The translations under genes and the position numbers were made by a program. From Enterobacter quasihormaechei (lineage in GTDB: Bacteria; Pseudomonadota; Gammaproteobacteria; Enterobacterales; Enterobacteriaceae), in contig NZ_SJON01000029.1 in assembly GCF_004331385.1 (NCBI RefSeq), forward strand, positions 414-24,413: a DNA stretch of 24,000 bases, given 5' to 3'. Below, one piece after another: positions 1-17,300 of the stretch (the first letter of the stretch is position 1; each line of letters begins with the position of its first letter). The notes below the pieces were generated by a model, which saw only the letters and a program-made list of their open reading frames with translations, made no database searches and had not been told where the DNA came from.

Positions 1-70
1 GTTTCCGGTGACAGTTGCATGGTGTTCTCCTTTTGTTCTGTTTCCGGAGGCAATGCCTCCGGCTTTTCTG

Positions 71-481
71 TCAGGCCTCGAGCGCAGCGCGCAGGCGCAT
101 CATGACGTCGTTTTCTTCTTTCAGGGTTTCTTCTGCCGATCCGCCGCCATCCTCCGCGCATACTGCGATACGTTGCATCTCCCGTCCTGCAAGCTGCATG
201 ACTAAGGCCAGCGATTTCGCGGGAATAGTCACGGTTCGCTTCTCGCGTCGCTCATCGAGCATGGTTTCGACAATCGCCCGTATCTGGCCGATATCCGCGC
301 CACTTTCAAGGCATGAACTTAGCCGACGCAGGACTTCATCCAGTTCCTCATCGGTTAAATCCCAGTCAAGGCAGACGCAACGAATGTCATTTCGATTCCA
401 GCAGGCGAAAACGTATTTCTCGCCATCGAGGTCGGAATGTCTGAACATTTCAAGGGCAATTTCTCTTGCTGTACCAATCAT
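71..481 (-). CDS. Leading-region hypothetical protein (136 aa), paralog of 1309..1731; possibly DUF1380-like (family name from memory, unverified)
   Basis: Intact ORF with an AAGGAG Shine-Dalgarno about 7 nt upstream of the ATG at 481. Shares the N-terminal M-x-GT-x-E motif and the R-x-V-[TS]-[IV]-P-A...L block with the 140-aa ORF at 1309..1731. Lies directly downstream of klcA on the same strand. Confidence 0.6.
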   Translation of the reverse strand: MIGTAREIALEMFRHSDLDGEKYVFACWNRNDIRCVCLDWDLTDEELDEVLRRLSSCLESGADIGQIRAIVETMLDERREKRTVTIPAKSLALVMQLAGREMQRIAVCAEDGGGSAEETLKEENDVMMRLRAALEA

Positions 482-523
482 GTTTTTCTCCTTTTATCGG
501 GCGGCATCGCCGCCCGTGGTCAG

Positions 524-952
524 TCAGTCAAGGGCACGCCAGATGGTGGCGCTTTCCGGATGGGTGTCAGCAAATGCCATAAGCTGCTCATAGCGACGGC
601 AGAAGTGGCGGCACAGCTCTTCATGGTCATGGTTGCTGTGGTGCCAGCTCCGGTGATTCAGTACCAGCGCCGTGAGAATGATCCCCGCCACTTCCCCGCT
701 GACAGTCTGCTCAAACCAGTTGTCCGGATTGCACAGGGTCAGGCTCTCCACGTCAGGCGCCATATATCCGCCACCTTCCGGCAGCCGGTAAAACTGCCAG
801 AATCCCCCCTGATACTCAGGGCAGTAACGCTGGGCATAGGCGTACACGGATGCCTCGGACGTCATAAAATCGCCGCCAAACAAATCAGGCAGGAAAGTCA
901 GGCGCTGCGCACCCTCAAGACGAACAGCATCACAGGTCACGGTCTGGTTCAT
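524..952 (-). CDS. klcA: Antirestriction protein KlcA/ArdB family (142 aa)
   Basis: From MNQTVTC the protein reads ...RLTFLPDLFGGDFMTSEASVYAYAQRYCPEYQGGFWQFYRLPEGGGYMAPD...IWRALD. This matches the KlcA/ArdB pattern I recall (LDFLPxxFG, ALVYxW, YxGxxWxxYxLxxGGFYMAPD, C-terminal IYRAID). GGAGGA RBS lies before the ATG at 952. The track start at 1030 runs into the upstream repeat and is rejected. Confidence 0.85.
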   Translation of the reverse strand: MNQTVTCDAVRLEGAQRLTFLPDLFGGDFMTSEASVYAYAQRYCPEYQGGFWQFYRLPEGGGYMAPDVESLTLCNPDNWFEQTVSGEVAGIILTALVLNHRSWHHSNHDHEELCRHFCRRYEQLMAFADTHPESATIWRALD

Positions 953-1009
953 AGATCCTCCACGGTTAACATATTCTCGGTTCCGGCATCGCCGTGACGA
1001 CACGACAGA

Positions 1010-1164
1010 CCGGCGAAAAGCGGAGGACACAGGGGCGACGCCGCAAGCCGCAGCGCAAAGCCTTCACGGGCTGAATGCACCGTGAAGGGTGCGAACGGGT
1101 GAGGACGGAGGCGTGAGCGAACCCTTGTGGCCGATGCGGCCGGGCTACAGTGAAGTCACGGCGC
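1010..1164 (-). repeat. GC-rich hairpin repeat copy 1 (Frpo-like candidate single-strand promoter) upstream of klcA
   Basis: About 155 bp, closely similar to 2750..2904 and 3735..3889. Central stem CCTTCACGG (1061-1069) / CCGTGAAGG (1080-1088) around the loop GCTGAATGCA. Ends 58 nt before the klcA start. Confidence 0.6.
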
Positions 1165-1308
1165 ATGCCGTCACCGCACGGAGCTTCAGGGGAGTTTCAT
1201 TGTCCCGACGTGGCCCGGAGGGCAGCGGCGGATAGAAGCGGAAGGCACTGACATCCTTTTCGCTGTGGATGTCCACCGGTTGCCGGGGCGTTACCCCGGC
1301 TCTTTCCC

Positions 1309-1731
1309 TTACGCGGCCAGCGTCTCCTGTAAGGCGTGAACGTCCTTCAGCTCATTCCTGACGGATTCAGGCTCCTGCCGCCCGGCTTCCCAGGCCATAC
1401 CGATCCGGTTTTCCAGCTCACATTCATAGTTACGCAGGACGCGGGACAGGAGTACCGCCGGAACACTCACCTGACGGTTTGCCGCTTCCCGCTGACGGGC
1501 CAGGAGATCGCTGACAGTCAGATTATTTACCCCCTCCTGGCGGTATTGCGTCATTTTCATTTCGCCGATCGCCTTCATCAGATTCCGGATTTCAGCCCCG
1601 TCCGGTTCTGGCTGGGCTTCACGGCAGGCCACGCTAATCCCCTCTTCCGTCCAGACCAGCAGGACCAGGGGTTCGTCAAACGTGAACATGTTTTCAAGCT
1701 GTACACAAAGTTCTTCGCGGGTTCCGTACAT
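1309..1731 (-). CDS. Leading-region hypothetical protein (140 aa), paralog of 71..481
   Basis: Intact ORF, same strand as its neighbours. Alignable by eye to the 136-aa ORF: MYGTREEL vs MIGTAREI, RQVSVPAVLLSRVL vs RTVTIPAKSLALVM, C-terminal LQETLAA vs LRAALEA. Confidence 0.6.
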   Translation of the reverse strand: MYGTREELCVQLENMFTFDEPLVLLVWTEEGISVACREAQPEPDGAEIRNLMKAIGEMKMTQYRQEGVNNLTVSDLLARQREAANRQVSVPAVLLSRVLRNYECELENRIGMAWEAGRQEPESVRNELKDVHALQETLAA

Positions 1732-1786
1732 CGTTTGTTCTCTCTTGTAAGGGGTTACAGACCGGGCATCAGCCCGGCAGGGTCAG

Positions 1787-2008
1787 TCAGTCCTGAAAGG
1801 TTTCGTCCAGCACCAGGGCTTCGCGGTAGGCTTCAAGAAGCAGGGTGTTGATCCGGCGCAGAGTCTGCGCAGCCATACGTTCGGTAAGCGTTGCCGCGTC
1901 GTGCCGGTGCTGCGATTCGAGGCGGTTCAGCAGCATCCGCACGTCACACATGGCATTGCTGAGCGCGGCCACGTCCGCGCGCAGGTTTTCAAGGCCCGGG
2001 TAGTTCAT
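1787..2008 (-). CDS. Hypothetical 73-aa helical protein, translationally coupled to the methyltransferase
   Basis: Its ATG overlaps the methyltransferase stop as ATGA (2005-2008). No motif recognised. Confidence 0.5.
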   Translation of the reverse strand: MNYPGLENLRADVAALSNAMCDVRMLLNRLESQHRHDAATLTERMAAQTLRRINTLLLEAYREALVLDETFQD

Positions 2009-2697
2009 GCCGCCTCCGGATAGTCGGGGTAAAACGCGCCGTCATTGGCCGCCGGCATCCTTCTTGCCCGTTCAACCTGTGCCAGACGTCGAACGCCGGC
2101 GGCGTGGTACTGCTCAAGCATCTCGATCCCGATATAGCGGCGGCTGGCTTCGGCGGCGGCCACGCAGGTGGAGCCGCTGCCGGCGAACGGGTCAAGGACA
2201 ATAGCCCCCGGACGCGTGAGCGATTCAATCAGCGGCCGCAGGCTCTGCACCGGCTTCTCCGTCGGGTGATGTCGGTTGCCCGTGTATTTCCAGGGGATCA
2301 CGTCCGGGATGGGACGGTCCGGGGTTTGCGGCCTTCCCTTTGCCAGCAGGTAGGCACTCTCATGGGTGTAACCCACGAACGTCGATTTTGAGGCGTAGCT
2401 CTTGGCAAAGACGATATGGCCAACCACCCGGAAACCGGCCGTTTTCCACGCATTCAGAAACAGATCCGCGCGGTTCCAGGCATAGAAACTCACCATCAGG
2501 CTGTCATTTTTCAGCACGCGGTACATTTCATGACAGGCGGGCTGGAGCCATTCTGCTGAGTTGTCCCCGGCCAGGGTACGACCGGTACGGTCCTTATAGC
2601 CAACCAGATACGGTGGATCGGTAAGAATAAAATCGACGGCACGCGCCGGAAAACGGGACATCACCTGCACGCAGTCACCCAGAATAAAACGGGACAT
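2005..2697 (-). CDS. Orphan DNA methyltransferase, beta-class (DPPY then FxGxG), probably N6-adenine (230 aa)
   Basis: From MSRFILGDC: motif IV FILTDPPYL lies near the N-terminus and the AdoMet motif LDPFAGSGST near the C-terminus. GAGGAG RBS precedes the ATG at 2697. No restriction endonuclease partner is adjacent. The track N-terminal extension to 3006 crosses the repeat and is rejected. Confidence 0.85.
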   Translation of the reverse strand: MSRFILGDCVQVMSRFPARAVDFILTDPPYLVGYKDRTGRTLAGDNSAEWLQPACHEMYRVLKNDSLMVSFYAWNRADLFLNAWKTAGFRVVGHIVFAKSYASKSTFVGYTHESAYLLAKGRPQTPDRPIPDVIPWKYTGNRHHPTEKPVQSLRPLIESLTRPGAIVLDPFAGSGSTCVAAAEASRRYIGIEMLEQYHAAGVRRLAQVERARRMPAANDGAFYPDYPEAA

Positions 2698-2720
2698 AGA
2701 CACACTCCTCTCTGATATGC

Positions 2721-2904
2721 GGCACCCTCTTGCGCCGTGCCGCCACAAAAACCCGGCGAAAAGCGGAGGGCGCAGGGGCGACGCCGCAAGCCGCAGCGCA
2801 AGCCTTTCACGGGCTGAATGCACCGTGAAAGGTGCGAACGGGTGAGGACGGAGACAAGTGAACCCTTGCGACCGCAGCGGCCGGGTTAGCGTGAAGGCAC
2901 GGCG
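2721..2904 (-). repeat. GC-rich hairpin repeat copy 2 (Frpo-like candidate single-strand promoter) upstream of the methyltransferase
   Basis: Near-identical to 3706..3889, including the 5'-UTR-proximal GGCACCCTCTTGCGCCGTGCCGCCACAAAAAC block. Perfect 10-bp stem 2803-2812 / 2823-2832 with loop GCTGAATGCA. Ends 24 nt before the start codon. Confidence 0.6.
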
Positions 2905-3056
2905 TTGAACACGCCGCCGGCTGGCGGCAATAAGGCGGAGGGAACCGACATCCTTCGGTACCGGTTCTGGTAGCTGATGAGTCCGTGAGTGTATGGCAGA
3001 ATGCACACTGATAATGGATTCGCGCCGTTATCTGACATGTGTGCCTTTGATTTCAG

Positions 3057-3086
3057 GACGTCCCCGACCGGAGACGTCTTTTTTTT
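3057..3086 (+). terminator. Rho-independent terminator-like hairpin, plus-strand orientation
   Basis: GACGTC (3057-3062) pairs with GACGTC (3073-3078), followed by T8 (3079-3086). The T-run is present only in the plus sense. Confidence 0.45.
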
Positions 3087-3185
3087 GAGTCGGATATATG
3101 GCAGGTGAAAGTGCGAAGTGATTATGTGATTATCAGCGCCGAAAACATCTTAAGGGTTTTCACCTGTAACGAATTGCATGGCTTC

Positions 3186-3219
3186 AGGACACCCCCTCCC
3201 CGGATGGTGTCCTTTTTTT
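3186..3219 (+). terminator. Rho-independent terminator, plus-strand orientation, abutting the stop codon of the minus-strand ORF 3219..3686
   Basis: AGGACACC (3186-3193) pairs with GGTGTCCT (3206-3213), followed by a T-run to 3219. No T-run follows the hairpin in the minus sense. Confidence 0.55.
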
Positions 3220-3686
3220 CAGCGCCCCTTCACGTGGTCGATAGCGAACTGCAGCGTGTCCCAGTTAAAACCGATGCCTGCATCGTGGCTGTGGTCGCAG
3301 ATACGCATGGCTTCTGCAATTTCTTCCTCCGACAGACTGTCATCAAGCGACAGAAAATCATCTTCCAGCCAGAACGTCCCCATACACAGTGCATCCGGTG
3401 GGTACTGCTTCAGCCTGGCGATGAGCCCTGCCACCGTCACATCATCACGACATGCAGGACGCGACGGCAGGACGCGATCGGCGATGTCGTTCCAGCACCA
3501 GTCATCGCACTCCGGTACGGGTTCCAGCAGGGTCTGTAATTCCACGCCCGGCAGCTGGGAGAGCTGCTCCAGAACCTCCCCCAGAGAAAGTCGCTCTCCG
3601 CTGGCATCTTCACTCCCCAGGTAATGGTGATTGATATAGACGGCAAACTCGCCGTTATCGAGTTCAATACAGGTCAGTCTGAACAT
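3219..3686 (-). CDS. Highly acidic leading-region protein (155 aa); candidate anti-defence/DNA-mimic protein, function unknown
   Basis: From MFRLTCIELDNGEF I count 31 D+E versus 10 K+R. GAGGA RBS lies about 8 nt before the ATG at 3686. Directly preceded by repeat copy 3. The track extension to 3932 crosses the repeat. Confidence 0.6.
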   Translation of the reverse strand: MFRLTCIELDNGEFAVYINHHYLGSEDASGERLSLGEVLEQLSQLPGVELQTLLEPVPECDDWCWNDIADRVLPSRPACRDDVTVAGLIARLKQYPPDALCMGTFWLEDDFLSLDDSLSEEEIAEAMRICDHSHDAGIGFNWDTLQFAIDHVKGR

Positions 3687-3705
3687 GGTTGTGTCCTCAG
3701 CATCC

Positions 3706-3889
3706 GGCACCCTCTTGCGCCGTGCCGCCACAAAAACACGGCGTAAAGCGGAGGACGCCAGGGCGACGCCGAAGCCGCAGCGCAAGCCCTTCACGGGCTG
3801 AATGCACCGTGCAGGGCGCGAACGGGTGAGGACGGAGACAACGTGAACCCTTGCGACCGCAGCGGCCGGGTTAGCGTGAAGGCACGGCG
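3706..3889 (-). repeat. GC-rich hairpin repeat copy 3 (Frpo-like candidate single-strand promoter) upstream of the acidic ORF
   Basis: Same unit as 2721..2904. The central stem has one mismatch (CCCTTCACGG / CCGTGCAGGG). Ends 20 nt before the start codon at 3686. Confidence 0.6.
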
Positions 3890-4006
3890 GGTAATTTCTT
3901 ACGGGAGATATAAAGCGGAGGGAAAATTTCACATTAAATTAAAATGTGATTTACATCACAAAACAATACATTATAATCGCCGAAAAATTAAGCGATTAGT
4001 TTTGAC

Positions 4007-4041
4007 GGCAGGGATGAGATGTCACCCTGCCGTTTTTTTTT
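4007..4041 (+). terminator. Rho-independent terminator, plus-strand orientation
   Basis: GGCAGGG (4007-4013) pairs with CCCTGCC (4025-4031), then G plus T9 (4033-4041). Followed by a perfect 15-bp-stem hairpin at 4042-4075. Confidence 0.55.
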
Positions 4042-4144
4042 GTCCTGCATTGTCCTCTTCAGGACAATGCAGGACAGAGGGTTACAGGATTGAGAGAATG
4101 CCAGCCGAAGATTGGAATCTGGAAGTGGGCAGCTGGCACGAAAC

Positions 4145-4525
4145 TTATTTAGCTGTTTTGCAGGCTGAGACTAACGATGATCGGAGTACGCGAAACTCTA
4201 TCACGTCGTTACGCCCGAGGAGCTTGAGGGCGTCTGGGGAACAGGCCATTGCAGCCTTCAGTGCCAGTGAAATGGCGAGGCTGCGGTAGCGGTTTTGCAG
4301 CATGATGGGAGCATCAGCAGGCACTGCGTCAGACACCTGTAGATACGCTTTCCATGCATCTGGCTGTGCCAAAGCATCACGTTCCACGGCTTCGAGCTGG
4401 TCTTCACGTTCCTTTTGCTTTTGCTTGGCCATCTGGTCAAGAACCGCCACTGTGGCTGCCGCATTCACCGCACCAGGTATTGCCAGTGTGAGCGCCACAA
4501 ACAAAATTGCAGTATTACACTTCAT
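4145..4525 (-). CDS. Exported hypothetical protein (126 aa) with Sec signal peptide
   Basis: The N-terminus MKCNTAILFVALTLAIPGAVNA-AAT is a classical signal peptide with an AxA cleavage site. Its start overlaps the stop of a 33-codon upstream ORF (ATGA). Confidence 0.6.
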   Translation of the reverse strand: MKCNTAILFVALTLAIPGAVNAAATVAVLDQMAKQKQKEREDQLEAVERDALAQPDAWKAYLQVSDAVPADAPIMLQNRYRSLAISLALKAAMACSPDALKLLGRNDVIEFRVLRSSLVSACKTAK

Positions 4526-4623
4526 TTGTCCTCCTCATTGTTGTTCATCTCCCTTATGTCCTGACAGTTCAACAGCTCGCTGGCCTCCGCCAGCGTCAGC
4601 CCCGCTCTCTCAACCCTTTGCAT
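4522..4623 (-). CDS. Possible 33-aa small protein (MQRVERAGLTLAEASELLNCQDIREMNNNEEDK)
   Basis: Not in the ORF track because it is under 60 aa. GGGAGGG Shine-Dalgarno lies 4-5 nt upstream of the ATG at 4623. Its stop overlaps the next ATG (ATGA at 4522-4525). Confidence 0.35.
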   Translation of the reverse strand: MQRVERAGLTLAEASELLNCQDIREMNNNEEDK

Positions 4624-4670
4624 CAGTCCCTCCCGGGCTGTCTGGTTACCATTCTGAATGATGTTCCTGC

Positions 4671-4934
4671 TCAGGATCGGTTCTTCGGCTTTTTATCGTC
4701 AAACGCCAGGAGAACACCGAGGCCGATCAGCGAGGCGTAGCAGACCTGCATCGCAATTGTCACCGGCAGGGAGATATTATCAACCAGAACACCGGGAACC
4801 ACGACGGCAACACCTGCCAGTATCATTCCCCTGCCGATCTTTTTTACCCGTTCCGGCCACTGAGATTCAGGCACGTTCCGGGCGCGCAGAAAGTTATGAA
4901 TGCACTGCTCTGCTTTTTGTTTAATCACTGACAT
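4671..4934 (-). CDS. Small membrane protein (87 aa, two hydrophobic spans)
   Basis: Hydrophobic spans GMILAGVAVVVPGVLV and VTIAMQVCYASLIGLGVLLAF. The start lies 3 nt after the stop of the upstream ParR-like gene. Confidence 0.55.
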   Translation of the reverse strand: MSVIKQKAEQCIHNFLRARNVPESQWPERVKKIGRGMILAGVAVVVPGVLVDNISLPVTIAMQVCYASLIGLGVLLAFDDKKPKNRS

Positions 4935-4937
4935 GTT

Positions 4938-5600
4938 CTAGTCTCCGAATGCCCGGCGCATATTTTTCTTTATCCTGGTCGCTTCAGCGGATACCGGTGC
5001 GGCAGGCTCCGCTGGTTTCTCCGGCACTGCAGCCATACTCACGTCAGCCGTACCAGCCATCTGCTGAACCAGAACCTGCAGCTCGCTGACCGTGCCGGGC
5101 GGTACCGGCATACTGGCCAGCAGACGCGGCAGCTCCGGTGCGGTCGTATGCAGGGCCAGACCGGTGATAATCAGGTTTCTCAGCAGCTCTCCGCGCAGGC
5201 GGGATGACACGCCCGTCAGCACACGCTCAACCCGTTCACTGCTCCGGTCATCCTGAAGCGTCAGGGTGTAACGCCGGCGCTGGTATTCCGTCTCCGGTGA
5301 CATGGCCAGAGCCGCCACGCCACCATCAGGCTCATCAGGAAGTCCTGAGAGTGAAGACCAGGTGCCGGATACCAGCGCCATCACGGCACAAAGCCGGATA
5401 GCGCTCAGATGCCCGTCAAAGAACACCGGGATCAGCGCCGGTAAACGTGCATCCGTCTGGTACATCACCGCCCCGGCGGTGGCGGCGGTCCGGATGAAGT
5501 CACCACGCAGGGGCTGTGAGATGGTGCTGATGGTCGCCATCGCCGCGATGTCGGTGCGATCGTCGCTGTGCAGATAGAAAGAATACTGGCCGTCCGGCAC
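4938..5600 (-). CDS. Putative ParR/StbB-type partition adaptor (220 aa), assigned by position only
   Basis: Begins 2 nt after the parM stop, the standard parM-parR order. No motif recognised, and it is longer than R1 ParR. Confidence 0.5.
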   Translation of the reverse strand: MPDGQYSFYLHSDDRTDIAAMATISTISQPLRGDFIRTAATAGAVMYQTDARLPALIPVFFDGHLSAIRLCAVMALVSGTWSSLSGLPDEPDGGVAALAMSPETEYQRRRYTLTLQDDRSSERVERVLTGVSSRLRGELLRNLIITGLALHTTAPELPRLLASMPVPPGTVSELQVLVQQMAGTADVSMAAVPEKPAEPAAPVSAEATRIKKNMRRAFGD

Positions 5601-5602
5601 GT

Positions 5603-6577
5603 TTAGTCCTCTTTATTGTAAAGGGCAATCTCTCTGGCCAGCGCCAGCTGCGGATCGCCGATAACCTCGATACGGTCAGGAGCCAGAGGCCAGGCCTGAC
5701 GGATAGCCTCTTCAATGAGGGATGCCCCTCCCCCGACCAGGAATACCCGGTTAACGTTCCTGAAGGCCGTCAGCTCACTGGTGACGCGCGCGCCCAGGGA
5801 AGTGATTGCCTCTGTAATTTTGTTCAGAACATTGTCAATTTTTCCGGCATCGTTGATCACTCGCTGCAGATACTGACGATCATTGCGGTTGCGGATGACC
5901 GTGTCAGCAATAAGCGCGCTGGTTTCGCTGTCTGCAGCCCGCAGCGCGCCTGCAGCTGCGCGGGTGACCTGTGACACGCCGACAGACGGATTGCCGTGTA
6001 CCGCACTGATATCATCAAACTGTCCGACAATCACGCCGGCATCGAGCGTGGTTCCGCCGAGATCGATAATCAGTGTGGTCTCAGCGGGTCCGGGCTTCAG
6101 CTCGGCGAGACGGGAGAACGCCGCCGGCAGTGATTCCGGCATCACCTTCACGTCCGTTACGGTAAATGCCCTGCCCTTATTCAGAACCAGCTCACGCATC
6201 AGGTTTTCCCGTTTGCGTCGGATGTTCTCCTCGTTCCGCTGGCAGTCCCCGTCATAATACTCGCTCAGGGGCAGCGTCACGGTCAGGCTCACCGGCTGCG
6301 GCTCAAGTCCGCTGTTCAGCAGGGCATGATGCACGGCCAGCAGGTTGAGATCACCGTACTGGTATTCCACGTTTGTCGTCGGGATGGCATCCCGGCTGAC
6401 GCTGTCCCAGGTGTATTTCAGCGTGCCCACCTGATAGTTGAACGTTGCGGCACTGAATTCCGCCACTTTCCAGCCATGCCGGAAGGAGTTAGCTGAAACC
6501 CGGGTCTGCAGCTCGTTTCCTTCAAACCATGCCAGCTTAACATTAGTTGAACCATCATCGCAGTAAATATTCATCAT
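5603..6577 (-). CDS. parM: Actin-like plasmid segregation ATPase ParM/StbA (324 aa)
   Basis: Actin-fold phosphate motifs: N-terminal IYCDDGSTNVK, IIDLGGTTLD and the C-terminal FLVGGGA. GGAG RBS. Followed by an adaptor-position gene and preceded by an AT-rich repeat region. Confidence 0.85.
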   Translation of the reverse strand: MMNIYCDDGSTNVKLAWFEGNELQTRVSANSFRHGWKVAEFSAATFNYQVGTLKYTWDSVSRDAIPTTNVEYQYGDLNLLAVHHALLNSGLEPQPVSLTVTLPLSEYYDGDCQRNEENIRRKRENLMRELVLNKGRAFTVTDVKVMPESLPAAFSRLAELKPGPAETTLIIDLGGTTLDAGVIVGQFDDISAVHGNPSVGVSQVTRAAAGALRAADSETSALIADTVIRNRNDRQYLQRVINDAGKIDNVLNKITEAITSLGARVTSELTAFRNVNRVFLVGGGASLIEEAIRQAWPLAPDRIEVIGDPQLALAREIALYNKED

Positions 6578-6589
6578 TATGCTCCGTTA

Positions 6590-6730
6590 ATTAAACTCAA
6601 TTTGATACATATTATAAGAGCAAAATGGCAAAACAAAAGCCTTATTTTCTCATTGTGAGTAATTTAAATATCTCATAATGAGAATAAATAGCATTTTGAG
6701 TAACTTAGATTACTCACCCTGTTCATGAAG
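6590..6730. promoter_or_regulatory. parC-like centromere/promoter region upstream of parM
   Basis: AT-rich. Three direct copies of a TGAG(T/A)A(A/T) motif (GTGAGTAA 6656, ATGAGAAT 6678, TTGAGTAA 6696) plus one inverted copy (TTACTCAC 6711), at roughly 15-22 bp spacing. Confidence 0.4.
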
Positions 6731-6764
6731 CAGGTGATCTGGATTATCCTCGCGCTGTTAAATA

Positions 6765-6784
6765 TACTGTATGCATAACCAGTA
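6765..6784 (+). promoter_or_regulatory. LexA (SOS) box
   Basis: TACTGTATGCATAACCAGTA fits the consensus TACTG-N10-CAGTA exactly, 22 nt upstream of the umuD-like start. Confidence 0.85.
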
Positions 6785-6806
6785 CATTTAGACGTCAGGA
6801 GGAAAG

Positions 6807-7238
6807 ATGAAACTGCAGCTTTTCAGCACCGGGAAAGCACTCCCGCCACAGGCCCATCCGTTGTTTGCAGACCTGGCCAGCTGCGGTTTTCCCAGCCCTG
6901 CCGCTGACTATGTCGAGTCCGACCTGGATCTCCATGATTACTGCATACGGCACCCGAGCGCGACTTACTATCTCCGTGCCAGCGGTGACAGCATGTCCGA
7001 CGGCAGCCTTTACAATGGCGATCTGCTGGTTGTGGACAGTGCAGAGAAGCCCCGGCACGGCGATATTGTTGTGGCCAGCGTGCAGGGGGAGTTTACGGTT
7101 AAACGGCTTCTGCTGACGCCACGACTGACGCTGCAGCCAATGAACGCCGCCTGGTCGCCGATTTATCCCGACCCGGACGATCTGGATATCTTTGGCGTCG
7201 TCACGCACATCATCCACCGCCCGAGGGAGATGTACTGA
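6807..7238 (+). CDS. umuD: UmuD/MucA-family SOS mutagenesis protein (143 aa)
   Basis: Cys-Gly self-cleavage site ([13 protein letters not shown]), catalytic Ser (ASGDSM) and Lys (FTVKRL). AGGAGG RBS. LexA box upstream. Overlaps the next gene by one base (stop TGA 7236-7238, next ATG 7238-7240). Confidence 0.9.
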
Positions 7239-8500
7239 TGTTTGCCCTGGCCGATGTGAACAGCTTTTATGCCAGCTGCGAACGTGTTTTCCGCCCTGAT
7301 TTGAAAGGAAAGCCGGTTGTGGTGCTCAGTAATAACGATGGCTGCGTCATCGCAAGAAGTGCCGAGGCAAAGCCCTGGATCAAAATGGGCACGCCGTGGT
7401 TTCAGATGAAAAACGAAAAGTACCCGGAAAAAATATACGCGTTCTCAAGCAACTATGAACTTTATGCCTCGATGTCAGCGCGCGTGATGAGCTGCCTGGA
7501 GGAGCTGGCCCCCAGGGTGGAACAGTATTCGATTGACGAGATGTTCCTCGACCTGACCGGCGTTGAGCACTGCATGGACCTGGAGGACTTCGGCCGGCAG
7601 CTGCGCCAGCACGTGTATGACTGTACCCGTCTGACCATCGGCGTGGGTGCCGGGCCGACGAAAACCCTGGCAAAATCAGCCCAGTGGGCCTCAAAGGAGT
7701 GGAAACAGTTTCGTGGCGTGCTCGCCCTGACCCGGGGGAATCCTCAGCGAACGCGGAAACTGCTTTCACTGCAGCCGGTCGAAGAGATCTGGGGCGTGGG
7801 AAACCGTATTGCACGCAAGCTCAATGTTCTTGGCATCAGGACCGCGCTCGATCTGGCCCTGACGAACCCGGCCTTCATCCGGAAAAATTTCTCCGTCGTT
7901 CTCGAGCGAACAGTGCGCGAACTGAACGGGGAAAGCTGCATGTCGCTTGAAGAAGCACCGCCTACTAAACAACAGATTGTCTGCAGCCGCAGTTTTGGCG
8001 AGAAGATCACTGAATACGATTCGCTGCGCCAGGCTGTCTGTCAGTACGCAGAACGGGCCTCAGAAAAGCTGCGTAAAGAGCGCCAGTACTGCCGGCATAT
8101 TTCCGTATTCATCAAAACGTCTCCGTTCGCCGTTAAAGAGCCTTACTACGGCAACGTGGCCACGGAGAAACTGCTTACCCCCACTCAGGACACCCGGGAC
8201 ATCATTGCGGCCGCCACAACGGCTCTGGAGCGTATCTGGAAGGATGGGCACCGGTATGCTAAAGCCGGTGTGATGCTGAATGACTTCACCGGCTCCGGAG
8301 TTTCGCAGCTGCAGCTGTTCGACGAACGTCCTCACAGCGCTGAGCTGATGAAGGTTCTCGATGGCATTAATCATTCCGGGCTGGGACAGGTCTGGTTTGC
8401 AGGACGAGGGATTGCGCCTGCATGGCAGATGAAACGCGATATGCTCTCCCCCGCGTACACCACACGCTGGAAAGATATCCCCATAGCGAGGATCGGTTAA
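7238..8500 (+). CDS. umuC: UmuC/MucB-family Y-family DNA polymerase V catalytic subunit (420 aa)
   Basis: [44 protein letters not shown] is the canonical UmuC N-terminus. SIDEMFLD catalytic motif is present. Confidence 0.92.
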
Positions 8501-8639: not shown

Positions 8640-8920
8640 CTTTATCCACTTATCCACGGGTATATTTTTATAAAGTCTTTTTTAATTCTTTTTTCTTTAT
8701 TTTACTCCTTTTAGGGAGCCTGAAAGCCGCATGCAGCGCGCCCTGAGAGGAGTTCATTATGGGCAACTGGTTAACATATTATGGGTAATTAATCACGTAT
8801 CTGTGGGTTCCATAGCAACAAGCTATGGGATACGCATCAACAAGCTATGGGAAACAGGTCAAGTTTAGATCTCATTTATCCACTTGTGGATAAATTGCAT
8901 ATTTTCCCGGTGGATAAGTA
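8640..8920. other. Vegetative origin (oriV) of the iteron replicon
   Basis: DnaA boxes TTATCCAC(T/G) at 8642-8650 and 8650-8658. AT-rich stretch at 8660-8715. Five 22-bp-spaced iterons at 8759-8868. Further DnaA boxes at 8876-8884 (TTATCCACT), 8885-8893 (inverted TGTGGATAA) and 8910-8918 (GTGGATAAG). Confidence 0.75.
8759..8868 (-). repeat. Five origin iterons at 22-bp spacing
   Basis: Units start at 8759, 8781, 8803, 8825 and 8847, each beginning (A/G)TGGG. The last (ATGGGAAACAGGTCAAGTT) is the near-exact reverse complement of the downstream iteron AACTTGACCTGTTTCCCA. The distal copies are more degenerate. Confidence 0.7.
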
Positions 8921-8956
8921 ACGTGATAGCTTGCAATTTCTGTTTTCACTGTCATT

Positions 8957-8980
8957 ATGGGTGAATAATAATTTACCCAT
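8957..8980. promoter_or_regulatory. Inverted half-iteron operator candidate for repA autoregulation
   Basis: ATGGGTGAAT-AATA-ATTTACCCAT is an imperfect inverted repeat built from the iteron ATGGG end, 11 nt before the repA ATG. This is analogous to the F repE operator arrangement. Confidence 0.45.
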
Positions 8981-8990
8981 AGGCCTTGGA

Positions 8991-9713
8991 ATGGATACTC
9001 AAGCACTCTTGCCAGCTACTAAAACGTTTAAAAAACGCGCCAGTATAAAGCAATCTAACGAATTGACCGAAGCCGCATATTACTTGCCTCTCCAGGCAAA
9101 ACGTGTGCTGTGGTTATGCCTTATGCAGGCCTATTTCAACGACAGTCAGGATGATGATTCTGACGTATTACCTCTCTTCAAAATTAGCGTTTCCGATTAC
9201 GTCAAATACTTCAATGTCGCTACGTCTGTCGCCAGTCGTGATGTAAAGGCTGGGGTAAATGCTTTGGGCGAATCAACGGTTACCTTCTATCCAAAAGAAG
9301 GTGAGTTTGAAGAAGTTAAACGTCCTTGGCTTGCTGAAGCAGGAATGAAGAGAGGCCGAGGGTCCTGGCAGATTGAGTTTAACTACAAGGTCATGCCATT
9401 CCTTGTTGGCTTAACCTCCCAGTTCACAACCTATTCTCTCTATGACTGCGGCCAGCTCAATAGTGTTCGTGTCATCCGGCTTTATGAAAGCCTGTGTCAG
9501 TTCCGGAGCACTGGTGTCTGGATCACCACACATGACTGGTTATGTGAAAGGTTTATGCTTCCAACCTCGCAGAAGAACAATATTGCGGAAATGAAACGTA
9601 CCTTCCTGGAACCTGCGCTGAAGAAAATTAATGAGAAGACGCCCTTAAAGGTAAGTTATACAACCGAAGAAGATGGTCGCTTACTGTTTAATTTTCTTGA
9701 AAAAAAACAATAA
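8991..9713 (+). CDS. repA: Rep_3-family iteron-binding replication initiator RepA (240 aa from ATG 8991)
   Basis: IKQSNELTEAAYYLPLQAKRVLWLCL is the typical Rep_3 (RepE/Pi/RepA) N-terminal signature. Flanked by iterons on both sides. The track start at 8931 is a TTG that reads through the operator, so ATG 8991 is preferred. Confidence 0.85.
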   Translation: MDTQALLPATKTFKKRASIKQSNELTEAAYYLPLQAKRVLWLCLMQAYFNDSQDDDSDVLPLFKISVSDYVKYFNVATSVASRDVKAGVNALGESTVTFYPKEGEFEEVKRPWLAEAGMKRGRGSWQIEFNYKVMPFLVGLTSQFTTYSLYDCGQLNSVRVIRLYESLCQFRSTGVWITTHDWLCERFMLPTSQKNNIAEMKRTFLEPALKKINEKTPLKVSYTTEEDGRLLFNFLEKKQ

Positions 9714-9800
9714 TCTGAAATTTATCCTATATCCCCCCTTGGACTGTTTCTTACTTTTGGGGGGATACTAAACTTGCTGTATTTCCCACATTACATGCCG

Positions 9801-10357
9801 AACTTGACCTGTTTCCCACTGTTCGGGCTGCCCTCTAAGTTGACTTCTTTCCCACAGTCCCGGCCAGTTATTAAGTTGACCTGTTTCCCACAGTCATGAC
9901 TGTCCGCGAAGTTGACGTGTTTCCCACACTCCCTGCTGGCCATAAAGTTGACCTGTTTCCCACGGTTCGTGCCGTCTGCGAAGTTGATGTGTTTCCCACA
10001 GTCCGGGCCGTCTGCGAAGTTGACGTGTTTCCCACAATACGGGCCATCTGCGAAGTTGACCTGTTTCCCACAGTTCGTGCCGCCTGCGAAGTTGATGTGT
10101 TTCCCACAGTCCGGGCCGTCTGCGAAGTTGACCTGCTTCCCACAGTCCGGGCCGTCTGCGAAGTTGACCTGTTTCCCACATTACGGGCCGTCCGCAAAGT
10201 TGACCTGTTTCCCATAGTCCGGGATGTCTGTGAAGTTGACCTGTTTCCCATATTCCGGGGTGTCTGTGTAGTTGACCTGTTTCCCATATTCCGGGGGGCT
10301 ACAAAGTTGACCTGTTTCCCATATTCCGGGGGGCTACAAAGTTGACCTGTTTCCCAT
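9801..10357 (+). repeat. Array of 16 iterons (19-bp core AAGTTGACCTGTTTCCCAC) at a 36-bp period; inc/copy-control array
   Basis: Cores start at 9801, 9837, 9873, 9909, 9945, 9981, 10017, 10053, 10089, 10125, 10161, 10197, 10233, 10269, 10304 and 10339. The 17-bp spacers are themselves related (AGTCCGGGCCGTCTGCG). A degenerate extra copy lies at 9771-9789. Confidence 0.9.
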
Positions 10358-10479
10358 AGAACACCGATTCTATGGCTGAATGATCTGCGGCCGGAGTCTG
10401 CAAAGATTAATCTTGAGTCCCAGCTGTGCGGCAAAGAGATATGATTAGATAAGAAAATCTGGAGCAGCCATAAAAAAAG

Positions 10480-10649
10480 CATGAAGTCATGATTTCATGC
10501 AATCATTAAGTTGCTTTGTACTTTTTTAGTAAGCGAGGTGACAGGCGATTAGAGTGCATATACTTAGATGAAAGGATGAAATCATGATTTCATCCTTTCA
10601 TGAAGGCGGGGGCTGAGTGGTTAACCTGGAAATGAAATCATGATTTCAT
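10480..10649. promoter_or_regulatory. Three palindromic sites with TGAAATCATGATTTCA core downstream of the RHH gene (candidate centromere)
   Basis: 10480-10499 CATGAAGTCATGATTTCATG (one mismatch). 10571-10598 AAAGGATGAAATCATGATTTCATCCTTT (perfect 28-bp palindrome). 10632-10649 ATGAAATCATGATTTCAT (perfect 18 bp, abutting the stop codon). Confidence 0.6.
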
Positions 10650-10876
10650 CATTTCATTTTATTGCGATACATTTCATATCCTGCAAGGAGCATATCTGTC
10701 ATCGATATTCCCTGTTCTGCCGCGTAAGCTTTCATCTCTTTATGCTTAGATACCGGCACTTTGATTTGGATAGGTTTAACCGACGAATCCGGCGCAGCTC
10801 CCTTTCCGGTAACATCCAGAGTTGGCTCATCCTCCTTAGGAGGCGCAAGTTTTATTGATTTTCCTGGGGCTTTCAT
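10649..10876 (-). CDS. Ribbon-helix-helix ParG-like centromere-binding protein (75 aa from ATG 10876)
   Basis: Disordered basic N-terminal tail followed by IQIKVPVSKHKEMKAYAAEQGISMTDMLLAGYEMY (strand-helix-helix pattern). GAGGAG RBS lies 4 nt before ATG 10876, whereas the track start is a TTG at 10894. Immediately downstream of the small ParA. Confidence 0.7.
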   Translation of the reverse strand: MKAPGKSIKLAPPKEDEPTLDVTGKGAAPDSSVKPIQIKVPVSKHKEMKAYAAEQGISMTDMLLAGYEMYRNKMK

Positions 10877-10920
10877 AGAACTCCTCATATCCAAAATAAT
10901 GAAATCGTTAAATCATGCTA

Positions 10921-11547
10921 TCATGAATTAATGATATCATGAATTTCTTCGATCATTTGTTTTGCTGTTTCGTTTAAGGATTTGAAAGGAGTTTCATGGA
11001 GGGCACGCCCCGCATCCAGAGCCTCACCGTAACTGGTTTTGAATGGAATGATTGTATTGAGAACTTTGAAGCCCCACGCCTTGATAGTCTCCTGAGCTTT
11101 TTCGCCCTGTGACTGAGATGGTGACTTTGCGACAATGAATACGATTTTGCTTTTCTCAATGCCCTTTTTAATCAATTCGCGGGCAAGTTCCAGAGAGGGT
11201 TCCAGATCATCAATTGTGGTCCCAGTGGTTATGATAACGAGATCAGATTCATCAGCCACATCCAGTGATGTTGTCTCTGCTGCAGGACGACCATCGATGA
11301 TAAGCAAATGGCAGCTATCTTTCATTTTGACAGCTGTATCTACCCGGCGGTAAAGAGCGCAGTCAATTTGGCTTAGACCATTGTTCTCGCGTCGTTCTGT
11401 CCACTTCAGAGAGGTTTGTTGCTTCGTGTCTATGTCCGCCAGATGAGTCTTCCATCCAGCTTCAGTAAACCCAACAGCAAGTGTTCTGGCTTTGGTACTT
11501 TTTGAACCTCCGCCTTTCTGACCAACGATCGATATAACCTTTCCCAT
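10921..11547 (-). CDS. parA: Small (type Ib, ParF-like) ParA partition ATPase (208 aa from ATG 11547)
   Basis: Deviant Walker A VGQKGGGSKST. Walker A' and B-like stretches LLIIDGRP and LVIITTG. AAGGTGG RBS precedes ATG 11547. An alternative ATG at 11562 lacks an RBS. Confidence 0.85.
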   Translation of the reverse strand: MGKVISIVGQKGGGSKSTKARTLAVGFTEAGWKTHLADIDTKQQTSLKWTERRENNGLSQIDCALYRRVDTAVKMKDSCHLLIIDGRPAAETTSLDVADESDLVIITTGTTIDDLEPSLELARELIKKGIEKSKIVFIVAKSPSQSQGEKAQETIKAWGFKVLNTIIPFKTSYGEALDAGRALHETPFKSLNETAKQMIEEIHDIINS

Positions 11548-11559
11548 ATATACCACCTT

Positions 11560-11735
11560 CATTAAATCATGATTTCATTAAACACATACATCCCACTTCT
11601 CATATTGCCCAAAATCGAACAACTTAACAAGATGAAATCATGATTTAATGATATAATTATAGCATGATTTACGTAACTGACTGATAGTAATTCATTACCA
11701 AACAATGAAAGCATGATGTAATGATTTCATGATCA
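11560..11735. promoter_or_regulatory. Cluster of ATCATGAT-core palindromes/half-sites in the divergent parA / 427-aa-ORF intergenic region (operator or second centromere)
   Basis: TAAATCATGATTTCA (about 11563-11577), GATGAAATCATGATTTAATGA (11631-11651), AGCATGATTTA (11661-11671) and TGAAAGCATGATGTAATGATTTCATGATC (about 11706-11734). Confidence 0.55.
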
Positions 11736-11753: not shown

Positions 11754-13037
11754 ATGAAACAGTACACATTGAAAATCTACTTTGGAGATAACTCTGCGCC
11801 TGCTTATTTTGGTGGCGACAGGCAGGATGATTCATCGAATACGACACCGTTCCAGGTGGCTCTTAAAAAGTCGCGAGACTGTAATTCATATGCCGCTTGC
11901 TTATGTACGGGTAAAGAATTGCCACTCTCTGTGAGGCTCAGAGTGGAGAAACATCATTTAGCTCGATTCCCACTCACGGGTATAAAACACAGAGAGGACT
12001 GTAGATTCTATAGTAGCCTCAGTCCTGAAGGGCCGCAGGGGTGTTATACACAGGACGCATTGAAAGAGAAGCCGGATGGAACAATCAATATTAAGCTTGA
12101 TTACCCGTTGCAGGTAACCGGTCCGTCAACACCCATAGATAGTTCTCTGCGTTCTGGTGATGCTTCACGGAACAATAAACGCGACACTGTTTCTATTCTT
12201 GGTCTTCTACATTTTCTCTGGGAGACAACCAGCTATAACACATGGGTACCTAAAATGGACGGTATGCGTTCATCCACTAAACTGGGTTATCACTTGTTTA
12301 AGCAGGCAGAAAAGATAGAAGCAGGCAAAACAAAGTTATCTGACGTTCTGCTCACTCCGGCCTACACGAACTCCAGCGATAGCAGAAGAAACAGCATGAC
12401 TGTCGAACGTGCGAAAGTTAATAAACAACGTCTTGTAGTTATTGCTGAGCTTGCAAAGTTCTCTGAAAGTTACATGGATGGATTAAATCGACTTCCTGTA
12501 CGTGACTTTTCCGGCATGCCTTTTCTGGGACTTGATGATGCCAGATGGAAGTCTGCGTTAGACAGATTTCCAATTGCGGTGAATGGCTGGATAAAAGGTA
12601 TGAAGGTATTTGTAATAGCTGTTACGGATGTTCCTGGCGCAAAATCAGCCCAGGTGAGACAGCTGGCCCTGATGATGGTAAGTGATCGCTACATACCGCT
12701 AGATTCATTGAATGAAGGGGCGTTTGAACAAAAGCTATTCGAGCTGGAGCGATCGTTTTACAAACCCCTACGTTATGATTCATCCACTCATGAATATCTC
12801 GCTGATTTTTGCCTCACTGATGTTTCTACAGATAACCATTTACCTATCCCTGTGGAAATATGGGGGATGAATACTCCTGATTATCAGGAGCATCGGATGG
12901 TAAAGGAAAGATGGTACAACGCAAATTATGGCGAAACTGGTTGGTTATCATGGGATGCAACTCGAACATCTGTAGACAGTATCGAATCGCTTTTACCCAA
13001 GAAAATGAAATCATTGTATCATGATATCATTAAATAA
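11754..13037 (+). CDS. Hypothetical 427-aa protein with N-terminal Cys/His cluster and C-terminal nuclease-like motif; possibly DUF1173 family (from memory, unverified)
   Basis: GAGGA RBS. C-x5-C-x-C...HH...H-x3-C cluster (CNSYAACLC...EKHH...KHREDC). C-terminal YLADFCLTD...PVEIWGM resembles the Y-x-x-DF...VE-[IV]-x-G pattern of Vsr/DUF559-type PD-(D/E)xK folds. Low G+C. Confidence 0.55.
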   Translation: MKQYTLKIYFGDNSAPAYFGGDRQDDSSNTTPFQVALKKSRDCNSYAACLCTGKELPLSVRLRVEKHHLARFPLTGIKHREDCRFYSSLSPEGPQGCYTQDALKEKPDGTINIKLDYPLQVTGPSTPIDSSLRSGDASRNNKRDTVSILGLLHFLWETTSYNTWVPKMDGMRSSTKLGYHLFKQAEKIEAGKTKLSDVLLTPAYTNSSDSRRNSMTVERAKVNKQRLVVIAELAKFSESYMDGLNRLPVRDFSGMPFLGLDDARWKSALDRFPIAVNGWIKGMKVFVIAVTDVPGAKSAQVRQLALMMVSDRYIPLDSLNEGAFEQKLFELERSFYKPLRYDSSTHEYLADFCLTDVSTDNHLPIPVEIWGMNTPDYQEHRMVKERWYNANYGETGWLSWDATRTSVDSIESLLPKKMKSLYHDIIK

Positions 13038-13256
13038 TGATTGATGTGCTACTGCCTCTCAAGAGAGCACCTTCCCGCAACATTACTTCATTTGGGAAGG
13101 TGTTGCCGTCCTGTTCTACTGGCTGGCAAAACGCAGGATTGATACCATATGAGTGATAGGTGACATGACCTGGTTCACGCGTTCCGCCTAATAGTTGAAA
13201 TGATGTTCTGATGTAGCAGTCTATCACCTGTAACTATTTGAGTTAAAGGATATAAA

Positions 13257-17298: not shown

Positions 17299-17300
17299 CC

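Follow-up and report, generated by a model that had tools for sequence, protein, structure and literature searches.

Three copies of a GC-rich element precede minus-strand genes

What function is served by a GC-rich hairpin element that recurs three times near one end of a 24,000-nt stretch of Enterobacter quasihormaechei DNA (contig NZ_SJON01000029.1, positions 414 to 24,413; this whole stretch is called the window below), each time immediately 5’ of a minus-strand gene? An earlier, sequence-only reading of this DNA had likened the copies to Frpo, that is, to promoters that act on single-stranded DNA (ssDNA) in the leading region of a conjugative plasmid. According to our analysis, all three copies represent, with high probability, ssDNA promoters of the ssp2/ssp3 (class 2/class 3) type. 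This assignment is based on profile homology, a common -35/-10 geometry, a hairpin backed by covariation, strand-specific stability and a fixed distance to the downstream gene.

A repeat search, an alignment and blastn within the window concordantly identified three direct copies of ~175 nt on the plus strand (Table 1), each located 5’ of a minus-strand gene as the sequence-only reading had claimed. Copies 2 and 3 are 93.7% identical over 189 nt (E 9e-78), copies 1 and 2 are 85.6% identical over 174 nt (E 3e-53), and copies 1 and 3 are 82.8% identical, likewise over 174 nt (E 4e-45). Their GC content of 67-69% compares with 52.5% for the window, and 61-62% of the plus-strand nucleotides are purines. 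The start codons of klcA, the methyltransferase gene and the acidic open reading frame (ORF), seen as CAT on the plus strand at 950-952, 2695-2697 and 3684-3686, were affirmed. The extent of copy 1 had to be revised: it does not begin at position 1010 but at ~990, where its basal left arm CGCCGTGAC pairs with GTCACGGCG. With this basal arm included, the bases of all three hairpins lie at similar distances from the start codons (38, 35 and 31 nt for copies 1, 2 and 3), and these values replace the previously given 58, 24 and 20 nt.

The copies are homologous to class 2 and class 3 ssDNA promoters

In the IncI1 plasmid pESBL, six early operons have been assigned to ssDNA promoters of three classes by donor-depleted RNA sequencing and 5’ rapid amplification of cDNA ends (Wen et al. 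2025, PMC12672017). Frpo/ssi make up class 1, the elements 5’ of klcA and ardA class 2, and the one that precedes the M.EcoGIX methylase operon class 3. The authors report conservation of classes 2 and 3 in F, and early induction was described for both pESBL and F (PMC12672017). We built a profile hidden Markov model (nhmmer) from the three window copies and the sequences Frpo*1 and Frpo*3 of Samuel et al. 2024. This profile aligned over its whole length with five class 2 and class 3 sites of F and ColIb-P9, with E values from 3e-12 to 7.5e-11 (Table 1). A pattern scan of one genome per species (185,579 species genomes), filtered with the profile, yielded 71 non-redundant members from ~15 genera of the Enterobacterales. 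Alignment A2 contains the 48 short-type members, and the structure counts given below refer to those 48.

The closest known counterpart is ssp3, the class 3 element of pESBL, ColIb-P9 and F (PMC12672017), with which the window copies align end to end in A2 (nhmmer E ~1e-11 to 3e-12). Both types are similar in size (184 nt against 189-196 nt) and in predicted stability (-49 to -51 kcal/mol for ssp3), and they have in common the basal stem, the blocks AAGCCGCAGC and CGGGTGAGGA, the core TTGnnn-N15-TAnnnT-N5-CACGG and the polarity within the leading region. Moreover, copy 2 also precedes a methylase operon, and relatives of the window type are found before DUF1281 genes, as is ssp3. The two types differ in the apical segment, which aligns with gaps only (A2 columns 94-128) and consists of GGAGGAACGACGAAACGTGAC in ssp3 but of a covarying hairpin with a CTGAATG loop in the window type. 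Further differences are the 3’ block GCGGAG...GACATCCTT, which is present in the window type and absent from ssp3, and the gene context, since in this plasmid the window type also precedes klcA and the acidic ORF.

The arms of ssp2 (class 2; Wen 2025; Fraikin 2026 preprint) are likewise homologous to the window copies (nhmmer E 4e-11 to 8e-11), and both types share the geometry of the promoter core, the 3’ flank block (AAAGCGGAG...GACTTCCTT) and a GC content of ~68%; copy 1 is situated before klcA, as is ssp2. However, ssp2 measures ~248 nt (class 2 members 242-253 nt), its apical domain is far more extensive, and it is predicted to fold with -68 to -78 kcal/mol, whereas the window cores are shorter and less stable. 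Published descriptions treat class 2 and class 3 as unrelated hairpins, and Wen et al. describe class 3 as unlike every other hairpin (PMC12672017), yet a direct comparison of the class 2 and class 3 sites of ColIb-P9 shows 74% identity across 73 nt of the promoter arm (E 3e-6).

The class 1 elements, Frpo1 and Frpo2 (ssiD) of F and ssi1-3 of ColIb-P9 (Masai & Arai 1997; Couturier 2023, PMC9849209), occupy the same region with the same polarity, and the mechanism proposed for them, in which a hairpin of the transferred strand rebuilds the -35 and -10 sequences, would apply to the window type as well. They differ in length (~330 nt), in their A/T-rich apical palindrome (AAAAGTTTTTG) and in serving operons of the ssb/psiB/ygeA type. 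Blastn of F ssiD (Frpo1), ssiE and ColIb-P9 Frpo1-3/ssi1-3 against the window gave zero hits (word size 7, E<=1e-3), and class 1 Frpo/ssi elements were thus ruled out as sequence relatives of the window copies. As sequence similarity is undetectable and the relatives are ssp2 and ssp3, the earlier label ‘Frpo-like’ is supported with regard to the mechanism, through the ssp2/ssp3 homology, but not with regard to ancestry.

Frpo*1 and Frpo*3, found in an insect-gut metagenome (OFEI01000013.1; PMC11541004), fall into one subfamily with the window copies (72-77% identity over 128-226 nt, E 6e-11 to 3e-33) and carry the same CTGAATG loop. Frpo*1 is the closer of the two, with 75-77% identity over 179-226 nt and E values down to 3e-33; the matches of Frpo*3 are weaker. 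In the original publication both appear in Supplementary Table 2, graded as low-certainty candidates whose -35 and -10 show ‘considerable differences’, with neither an analysis of structure and covariation nor a link to classes 2 and 3 (PMC11541004), and the Samuel sequences are already used for a PLSDB-wide annotation of ‘Frpo promoters’ by BLAST (PMC12826799). Hence, the kind of element and the listing of the subfamily (Frpo*1/*3) are known. New are the homology of the Frpo*1/*3 type to validated promoters, the covariation-backed structure, and the -10 bubble together with the 15-nt spacer; furthermore, there is an indication that class 2, class 3 and the window type share one promoter core and differ in their apical domains. 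There is also an indication that the Frpo* sequences graded low-certainty in 2024 are probably genuine promoters.

A putative sigma-70-like core with conserved geometry lies in the 3’ arm

The sequence-only reading expected -35/-10-like hexamers in the duplex stem. They are present in all three copies with the geometry of ssp2 and ssp3: the arrangement TTGnnn-N15(16)-TAnnnT-N5-CACGG occurs in 69/71 non-redundant members, including the three copies and ssp2 and ssp3 of F and ColIb. The hexamers themselves are TTGCAT and TAAGAT in ssp2 and TTGCAT and TAACGT in ssp3; those of the window copies are given in Table 1. In A2, the TTG of the -35 hexamer is found in 48, 47 and 48 of the 48 sequences, respectively, and the -10 hexamer follows TAnnGT, with the opening T and A and the final T conserved in 46/48 each and the G in 47/48. 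The template arm has ~4 extra nucleotides in the internal loop of the spacer.

Based on this shared geometry, transcription is predicted to start at the conserved CA of the basal stem and to proceed leftward. In copy 1 the start would be templated by T995, which is paired with A1159, and would leave a 5’-untranslated region (5’-UTR) of ~43 nt before klcA; the corresponding predictions are T2738 and ~41 nt before the methylase gene for copy 2, and T3723 and ~37 nt before the acidic ORF for copy 3. All three predicted leaders include a Shine-Dalgarno sequence. An ATG with a Shine-Dalgarno sequence is located 30-45 nt from the basal stem in 62 of the 68 members that have enough flanking sequence. 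On the minus strand, a consensus scan of positions 1-4600 detected no sigma-70 duplex promoter.

Covariation backs a long irregular hairpin with a mismatched -10 bubble

RNAalifold and manual completion of the structure on A2 gave a consensus consisting of a single long irregular hairpin. From base to apex it comprises the basal stem P1 (GCGCCGTGCC/GGCACGGCG), an internal loop between P1 and P2 that holds the -10, the helix P2 (CCGGC/GCCGG), an asymmetric 10 x 6 internal loop between P2 and P3, the -35 duplex P3, the helix P4 (AAGCCG/CGGGT) and an apical covarying hairpin with a conserved TGAAT loop. The 51 proposed pairs are formed in 89.4% of the alignment cells, compared to 30-41% when the partners were slid by 1-3 columns, a control that preserves the relatedness of the sequences. 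Both sides have changed in 29/51 pairs, and the covariation score of 0.304, against 0.115 for shuffled alignments, was reached by 0/500 shuffles.

This structure accounts for both hexamers. The -35 is in duplex: CTTG on the 3’ arm is near-invariant (48, 48, 47 and 48 of 48), and the variable -35 positions covary with the 5’ arm, four Watson-Crick types being found at one pair. Positions -11, -10 and -9 are mismatched in 45/48, 45/48 and 43/48 sequences though both sides vary, and thus form a conserved mismatch bubble. Sigma-70 must unpair the part of the -10 that is covered by this bubble.

The central stem-loop described by the sequence-only reading, with a 9-bp stem in copy 1 and a 10-bp stem in copy 2, is present as stated; its apical loop is TGAAT, closed by C-G and G-C, with one bulged A. 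The account of the longer stem by paired insertion was only partly supported. Compensation did occur, a clean C-G to T-A substitution being evident between the stems of copies 2 and 3, but there is no net length change among copies 1, 2 and 3, so that a paired insertion is not the most economical description. The pairing of the outer arms CGCAAG and CTTGCG, also proposed there, shows no covariation, with one Watson-Crick type that is broken in 29/48 sequences at the variable position. It was rejected as a conserved pairing; CTTGCG pairs further 5’ with GCGCAG-GGG. In A2 the CTTG of the -35 (columns 162-167) can pair in the left arm either with CAG-G or with CAAG (columns 60-64 or 75-80). Only the former pairing covaries, and the latter appears when the window copies are folded for minimum energy, which makes CGCAAG with CTTGCG a possible alternative conformer in these three copies.

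Folding with DNA parameters showed the given strand to be more stable than its complement in 71/71 members, by -6.6 kcal/mol on average. Many plus-strand pairs are G-T (e.g. 38/48 at the first T of the -35) and therefore become C-A on the opposite strand. This strand preference bears on whether the elements might act in RNA or in duplex DNA, as terminators or insulators between operons, as leader structures or as operator sites of a regulator. Such roles would suit the position of the elements between operons and the invariance of GAACGGGTGAGGA, the CTGAATG loop and AAAGCGGAG without a need to pair. We nevertheless consider these roles very unlikely, as the strand that has the sense of the mRNA folds less well in every one of the members. 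Moreover, the terminator scan detected neither a terminator-like site nor a T-run terminator at the three elements, the predicted start within the basal stem leaves the hairpin outside the leader, and a search of the whole window against Rfam at the gathering threshold gave no match.

The plus strand is the transferred strand

Positions 1-7998 of the window are 97.8% identical to the Enterobacter kobei plasmid pSTW0522-51-1 (L001; MOBF, MPF_F), from which the polarity was read; the oriT of the window’s own replicon falls outside the window. Oriented as the window, the reference plasmid carries traM, traA and other tra genes to the left, followed by a lytic transglycosylase gene and by the minus-strand leading-region run of DUF932, hok, psiA, psiB, a ParB-like gene, klcA and the methylase gene, which terminates at parM/stbB, umuDC and repE, all located within the window. 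The plus strand of pSTW0522-51-1 has an F-type nic motif (GCGTGGGGTGT|GATG), with an inverted repeat before it, ~13.4 kb to the left of window position 1, which corresponds to distances of about 14.4, 16.2 and 17.1 kb between nic and the three copies. In F-like transfer the nicked strand enters the recipient 5’ first. With nic on the plus strand to the left and all leading genes on the minus strand, the plus strand is therefore both the transferred strand and the template. The earlier proposal that the plus strand is the T-strand and that oriT lies to the left of the window thus holds on this 97.8%-identical plasmid. The same polarity relative to traM or the relaxase gene, and the same placement in the leading region, were found for members on an F-like plasmid of Cronobacter and on a MOBP/MPF_I plasmid of Serratia.

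The reference plasmid carries three additional class-1-like elements closer to oriT (L001 8467-8849, 11805-12152 and 19120-19467), which are nearest to Samuel’s Frpo*5 and *7 (74-80% identity) and match F Frpo over a short stretch only. Together with the three elements of the window type, this brings the putative ssDNA promoters of its leading region to six, which belong to two sequence types unrelated to each other. A long ssp2-type element is absent from this region.

Combining these data, we propose the following mechanism. During conjugation the plus strand of the window would enter the recipient 5’ to 3’ from the nick ~13 kb to the left, and each element would form a ~175-nt hairpin, long and imperfect, on the entering strand. 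The 3’ arm would provide the non-template strand of a sigma-70-like promoter (TTGnnn, 15 nt, TAnnnT), while the 5’ arm would keep the -35 part in duplex. As positions -11 to -9 would lie within the conserved 3x3 mismatch bubble, the promoter would be partly pre-melted. Host RNA polymerase would then initiate at the conserved CA in the basal stem with the 5’ arm as template, and would leave the hairpin leftward into klcA, the methylase operon or the acidic ORF via a leader of 37-43 nt containing the Shine-Dalgarno sequence. Synthesis of the complementary strand would abolish the hairpin and thereby switch the promoter off.

Several points weigh against this assignment. The hexamer spacer of 15 nt (16 nt in few members) is below the 16-18 nt of ordinary sigma-70 promoters, and the -10 hexamers are weak (3/6 consensus matches for TAGCGT, 4/6 for TACAGT). 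Folding energies differ from those of shuffled sequences in copies 1 and 2 (z -3.4 each), but copy 3 folds no better than shuffled sequence (z -1.0), and in the central part of all three copies the minimum-energy fold departs from the covariation-supported consensus. The 48 sequences of A2 are related, so that the covariation counts do not represent independent events. The loci of F and ColIb were matched to the published classes, notably class 3, by the gene contexts given in the papers and not by published coordinates, and Samuel et al. themselves graded Frpo*1 and *3 as low-certainty (PMC11541004). For this plasmid and subfamily, early expression in recipients is deduced from homology, and it is likewise a prediction that transcription initiates on ssDNA in this plasmid, at exactly the sites given, and that the duplex form is inactive.

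A possible role in complementary-strand synthesis and the unpaired conserved blocks

In F, complementary-strand synthesis halts at the stem base of ssp2 until UvrD resolves the hairpin (bioRxiv 10.64898/2026.01.09.698686; see also PMC13478746), and Frpo transcripts are described there as able to prime DNA synthesis, with reference to Masai & Arai 1997 (bioRxiv 10.64898/2026.01.09.698686). The window hairpins might accordingly govern mainly complementary-strand synthesis, either as a roadblock like F ssp2 or through ssi priming, with transcription being secondary. The conserved unpaired motifs and the 3’ flank block, which promoter function leaves unexplained, could fit such a role, and it is compatible with promoter function. 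However, ssp3, the element nearest to the window copies in size, was reported to equal ssp2 in promoter strength but to be devoid of roadblock activity (bioRxiv 10.64898/2026.01.09.698686). The window cores of 173-175 nt, at a predicted -46 to -55 kcal/mol, resemble ssp3 and not the ssp2 type, so a roadblock role seems less likely for these shorter elements. Furthermore, the invariant TTG/TAnnnT, the -10 bubble and the fixed distance to the start codon are traits of a promoter beyond those of a mere obstacle. A primary role in strand synthesis is for these reasons improbable, and the ssDNA promoter remains the preferred interpretation.

Three blocks are invariant without a pairing requirement, namely GAACGGGTGAGGA, which is only partly paired, the CTGAATG loop and AAAGCGGAG. 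Downstream of the hairpin, the 3’ flank block has the consensus AAAGCGGAGCGCAGCGAC(A/T)TCCTT, and its core motif is found in 35/71 3’ flanks compared to a background of ~0.15 per kb. The sequence-only reading had assigned a shared 3’ block to each copy. This is correct for copies 1 and 2, while copy 3 has AAGCGGAGGG alone and lacks GACATCCTT (Table 1). In the flank of copy 1, GACATCC can pair with GGATGTC at 1269-1275; in copy 2 the block is preceded by a small GC hairpin, CGCCGCCGGCTGGCGGC. Written as AAAGCGGAG(CGCAG)CGAC(A/T)TCCTT, the block usually has such a small GC hairpin before it, the motif is ~100-fold enriched over background, and the unpaired spacer-loop sequence of the left arm (GAAAAGCGGAGG) recurs in the first half of the block. 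Since it resembles AAAGCGGAG..CGAC of the left arm, the block was inspected as an alternative partner of the -35 and rejected, because it is constant where the -35 region and its true partner covary, e.g. in L013.

It is conceivable, although we regard this as a tentative extension, that class 2, class 3 and the Enterobacter/Pantoea/Erwinia type form one homologous superfamily, composed of an invariant promoter core, an exchangeable apical domain and unpaired invariant blocks that act as recognition sites. The core may consist of the basal stem, the pre-melted -10 bubble, the short GC helix, the -35 duplex and the 15-nt spacer, and the apical domain may set the stability of the hairpin and hence the stalling of the complementary strand. 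GAACGGGTGAGGA, the CTGAATG loop and AAAGCGGAG may be sites for RNA polymerase or for another ssDNA-binding factor of host or plasmid, and AAAGCGGAG is present in the spacer loop and again, as AAGCGGAG or AGGCGGAG, in the 3’ flank.

Inverted DnaA-box-like sequences, TTGTCCACA ... TGTGGATAA, were also observed on the transferred strand just 3’ of the promoter hairpin, at L003 ~21890-21960 (ColIb-P9), at L002 ~2560-2650 (F) and in the 3’ flanks of the long-type members L011, L035, L050, L057 and L070. Such an inverted pair could form a hairpin with a duplex DnaA box, possibly a priming signal. Of the three window copies, copy 1 alone is followed by such a pair, in a weak form (CTGTGGATGTCCAC, 1266-1279).

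The element family is confined to plasmids of Enterobacterales

The degenerate pattern alone produced many chance matches in GC-rich genomes (e.g. Streptomyces), which were cleared by the profile search. The true members of the species scan are located on plasmids or on contigs of 13-400 kb only, and all belong to Enterobacterales. Among 5,426 complete E. coli genomes there were 128 matches, all of them on plasmids and 0 on the chromosome. In PLSDB 4,144 records match, mainly from Klebsiella and Enterobacter, with ~1.3 places per record. At the loci with at least two hits (n=27), every hit within a locus lies on the same strand.

Being GC-rich, palindromic, multi-copy and intergenic, the elements could be suspected to represent a selfish or generic repeat of the REP or MITE kind that is intergenic by chance. 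Members of such a repeat at arbitrary locations would have contradicted the sequence-only reading. We give this explanation next to no credence, because no chromosomal copy was found in E. coli, species-scan members reside only on the plasmids and contigs described above, and the orientation within each locus is locked and the distance to the start codon fixed.

Genes behind the copies

Copy 1 is followed by a klcA/ardB-type antirestriction gene, copy 2 by an operon of methylase gene, small ORF and DUF1380 gene, and copy 3 by the acidic ORF (Table 1). Neither the acidic ORF nor the other small ORFs matched a Pfam or NCBIfam family. Homologues of the acidic ORF are located downstream of this element type in 8 non-redundant family elements, including L001, which is near-identical to the window copy; two of the 8 are short (82-84 aa). 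Across the family, the first genes encode methylases (21), KlcA/ArdB (19), ArdA (8), the acidic ORF (8) and DUF1281 proteins (6). As a side observation, the acidic 155-aa protein is a candidate anti-defence protein, possibly a DNA mimic.

If they act as proposed, the elements would select the plasmid genes to be expressed during the first minutes in the recipient, here those for ArdB/KlcA antirestriction, a DNA methylase and an uncharacterised acidic protein, and would contribute to the way in which resistance plasmids of Enterobacter, Klebsiella and relatives overcome restriction barriers. The signature TTGnnn-N15-TAnnnT-N5-CACGG plus the -11 to -9 bubble, common to ssp2, ssp3 and the present subfamily, could aid the annotation of leading regions and point to candidate anti-defence genes.

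Table 1. Positions of element features and downstream genes in the window, and of the F and ColIb-P9 sites aligned with the profile
Feature	Position	Strand	Details
Copy 1, hairpin core	990-1164	+ (transferred)	basal stem 990-998/1155-1163; apical loop TGAAT 1072-1076
Copy 1, conserved blocks	1045-1052; 1093-1105	+	AAGCCGCA; GAACGGGTGAGGA
Copy 1, promoter core, 3’ (non-template) arm	1125-1151	+	TTGTGG 1125-1130, 15-nt spacer, TACAGT 1146-1151
Copy 1, 3’ flank block	1236-1258	+	AAGCGGAAGG ... GACATCCTT
Copy 2, hairpin core	2732-2904	+	basal stem 2732-2741/2896-2904; apical loop TGAAT 2815-2819
Copy 2, conserved blocks	2788-2795; 2836-2848	+	AAGCCGCA; GAACGGGTGAGGA
Copy 2, promoter core	2866-2892	+	TTGCGA 2866-2871, 15-nt spacer, TAGCGT 2887-2892
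Copy 2, 3’ flank block	2933-2955	+	AGGCGGAGGG ... GACATCCTT
Copy 3, hairpin core	3717-3889	+	basal stem 3717-3726/3881-3889; apical loop TGAAT 3799-3803
Copy 3, conserved blocks	3772-3779; 3820-3832	+	AAGCCGCA; GAACGGGTGAGGA
Copy 3, promoter core	3851-3877	+	TTGCGA 3851-3856, 15-nt spacer, TAGCGT 3872-3877
Copy 3, 3’ flank block	3913-3922	+	AAGCGGAGGG
klcA/ardB-type antirestriction gene	524-952	-	PF03230, E 1.5e-25; first gene behind copy 1
ORF after klcA	71-481		DUF1380 in the annotation of the reference plasmid
Operon behind copy 2	1309-2697	-	methylase, small ORF, DUF1380 gene
N6/N4 DNA methylase	2005-2697	-	PF01555, E 1.4e-37
Small ORF of the methylase operon	1787-2008	-	
DUF1380 protein of the methylase operon	1309-1731	-	
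Acidic 155-aa ORF behind copy 3	3219-3686	-	pI 4.2; 31 D+E vs 10 K+R
F class 3 site	L002 2662-2824		upstream of DUF1281-methylase operon; E 3e-12
F ssp2	L002 6487-6713		upstream of yfgB; E 6e-11
ColIb-P9 class 3	L003 21720-21880		E 1.4e-11
ColIb-P9 class 2	L003 10178-10419		upstream of ardA; E 4e-11
ColIb-P9 class 2	L003 17829-18056		upstream of klcA; E 7.5e-11

Other features of the window

Besides the hairpin elements, the plus strand carries a near-consensus sigma-70 promoter at 3950-3977 (TTTACA-16-TATAAT, 11/12), followed by a stretch of ~58 nt with two hairpins that ends in a T-run (window 3950-4040; RNA fold -24.9 kcal/mol, z -6.2). This region looks like a small RNA gene with antisense polarity to the leading-region operons, and has no Rfam match. 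Between the flank of copy 2 and the acidic ORF, ~260 nt of the plus strand (2960-3220) are non-coding and contain a hairpin plus T-run at ~3046-3075 and 3187-3220. Positions 3085-3225 align with 3925-4045 (58/144 columns identical), including the common motif ATGTGATT, and the 2960-3220 region may thus represent a second, related small transcription unit.

Further to the right, the Rep3-family initiator gene repE (8931-9713) is flanked by iteron-like arrays at 8801-8872 and 9799-10356, made up of 22-nt repeats upstream and of 15.6 copies of a 36-nt unit downstream, which have the core CTGTTTCCCACAG in common, in inverted orientation. The palindromic motif ATGAAATCATGATTTCAT is clustered at 10467-10675, 10896-10945, 11559-11730 and 12998-13047; these clusters flank a ParA-like ATPase gene (10921-11562, minus strand) and a DUF1173 gene (11754-13037, plus strand), and are likely operator or centromere-like sites. 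At 16189-19556 on the plus strand, an ORF of 369 aa is followed by a 751-aa KAP-family P-loop NTPase, which is adjoined by an EAL/CSS-motif phosphodiesterase gene (19553-21097, minus strand) and an IS3-type transposase; this is accessory cargo, possibly a defence-type module.

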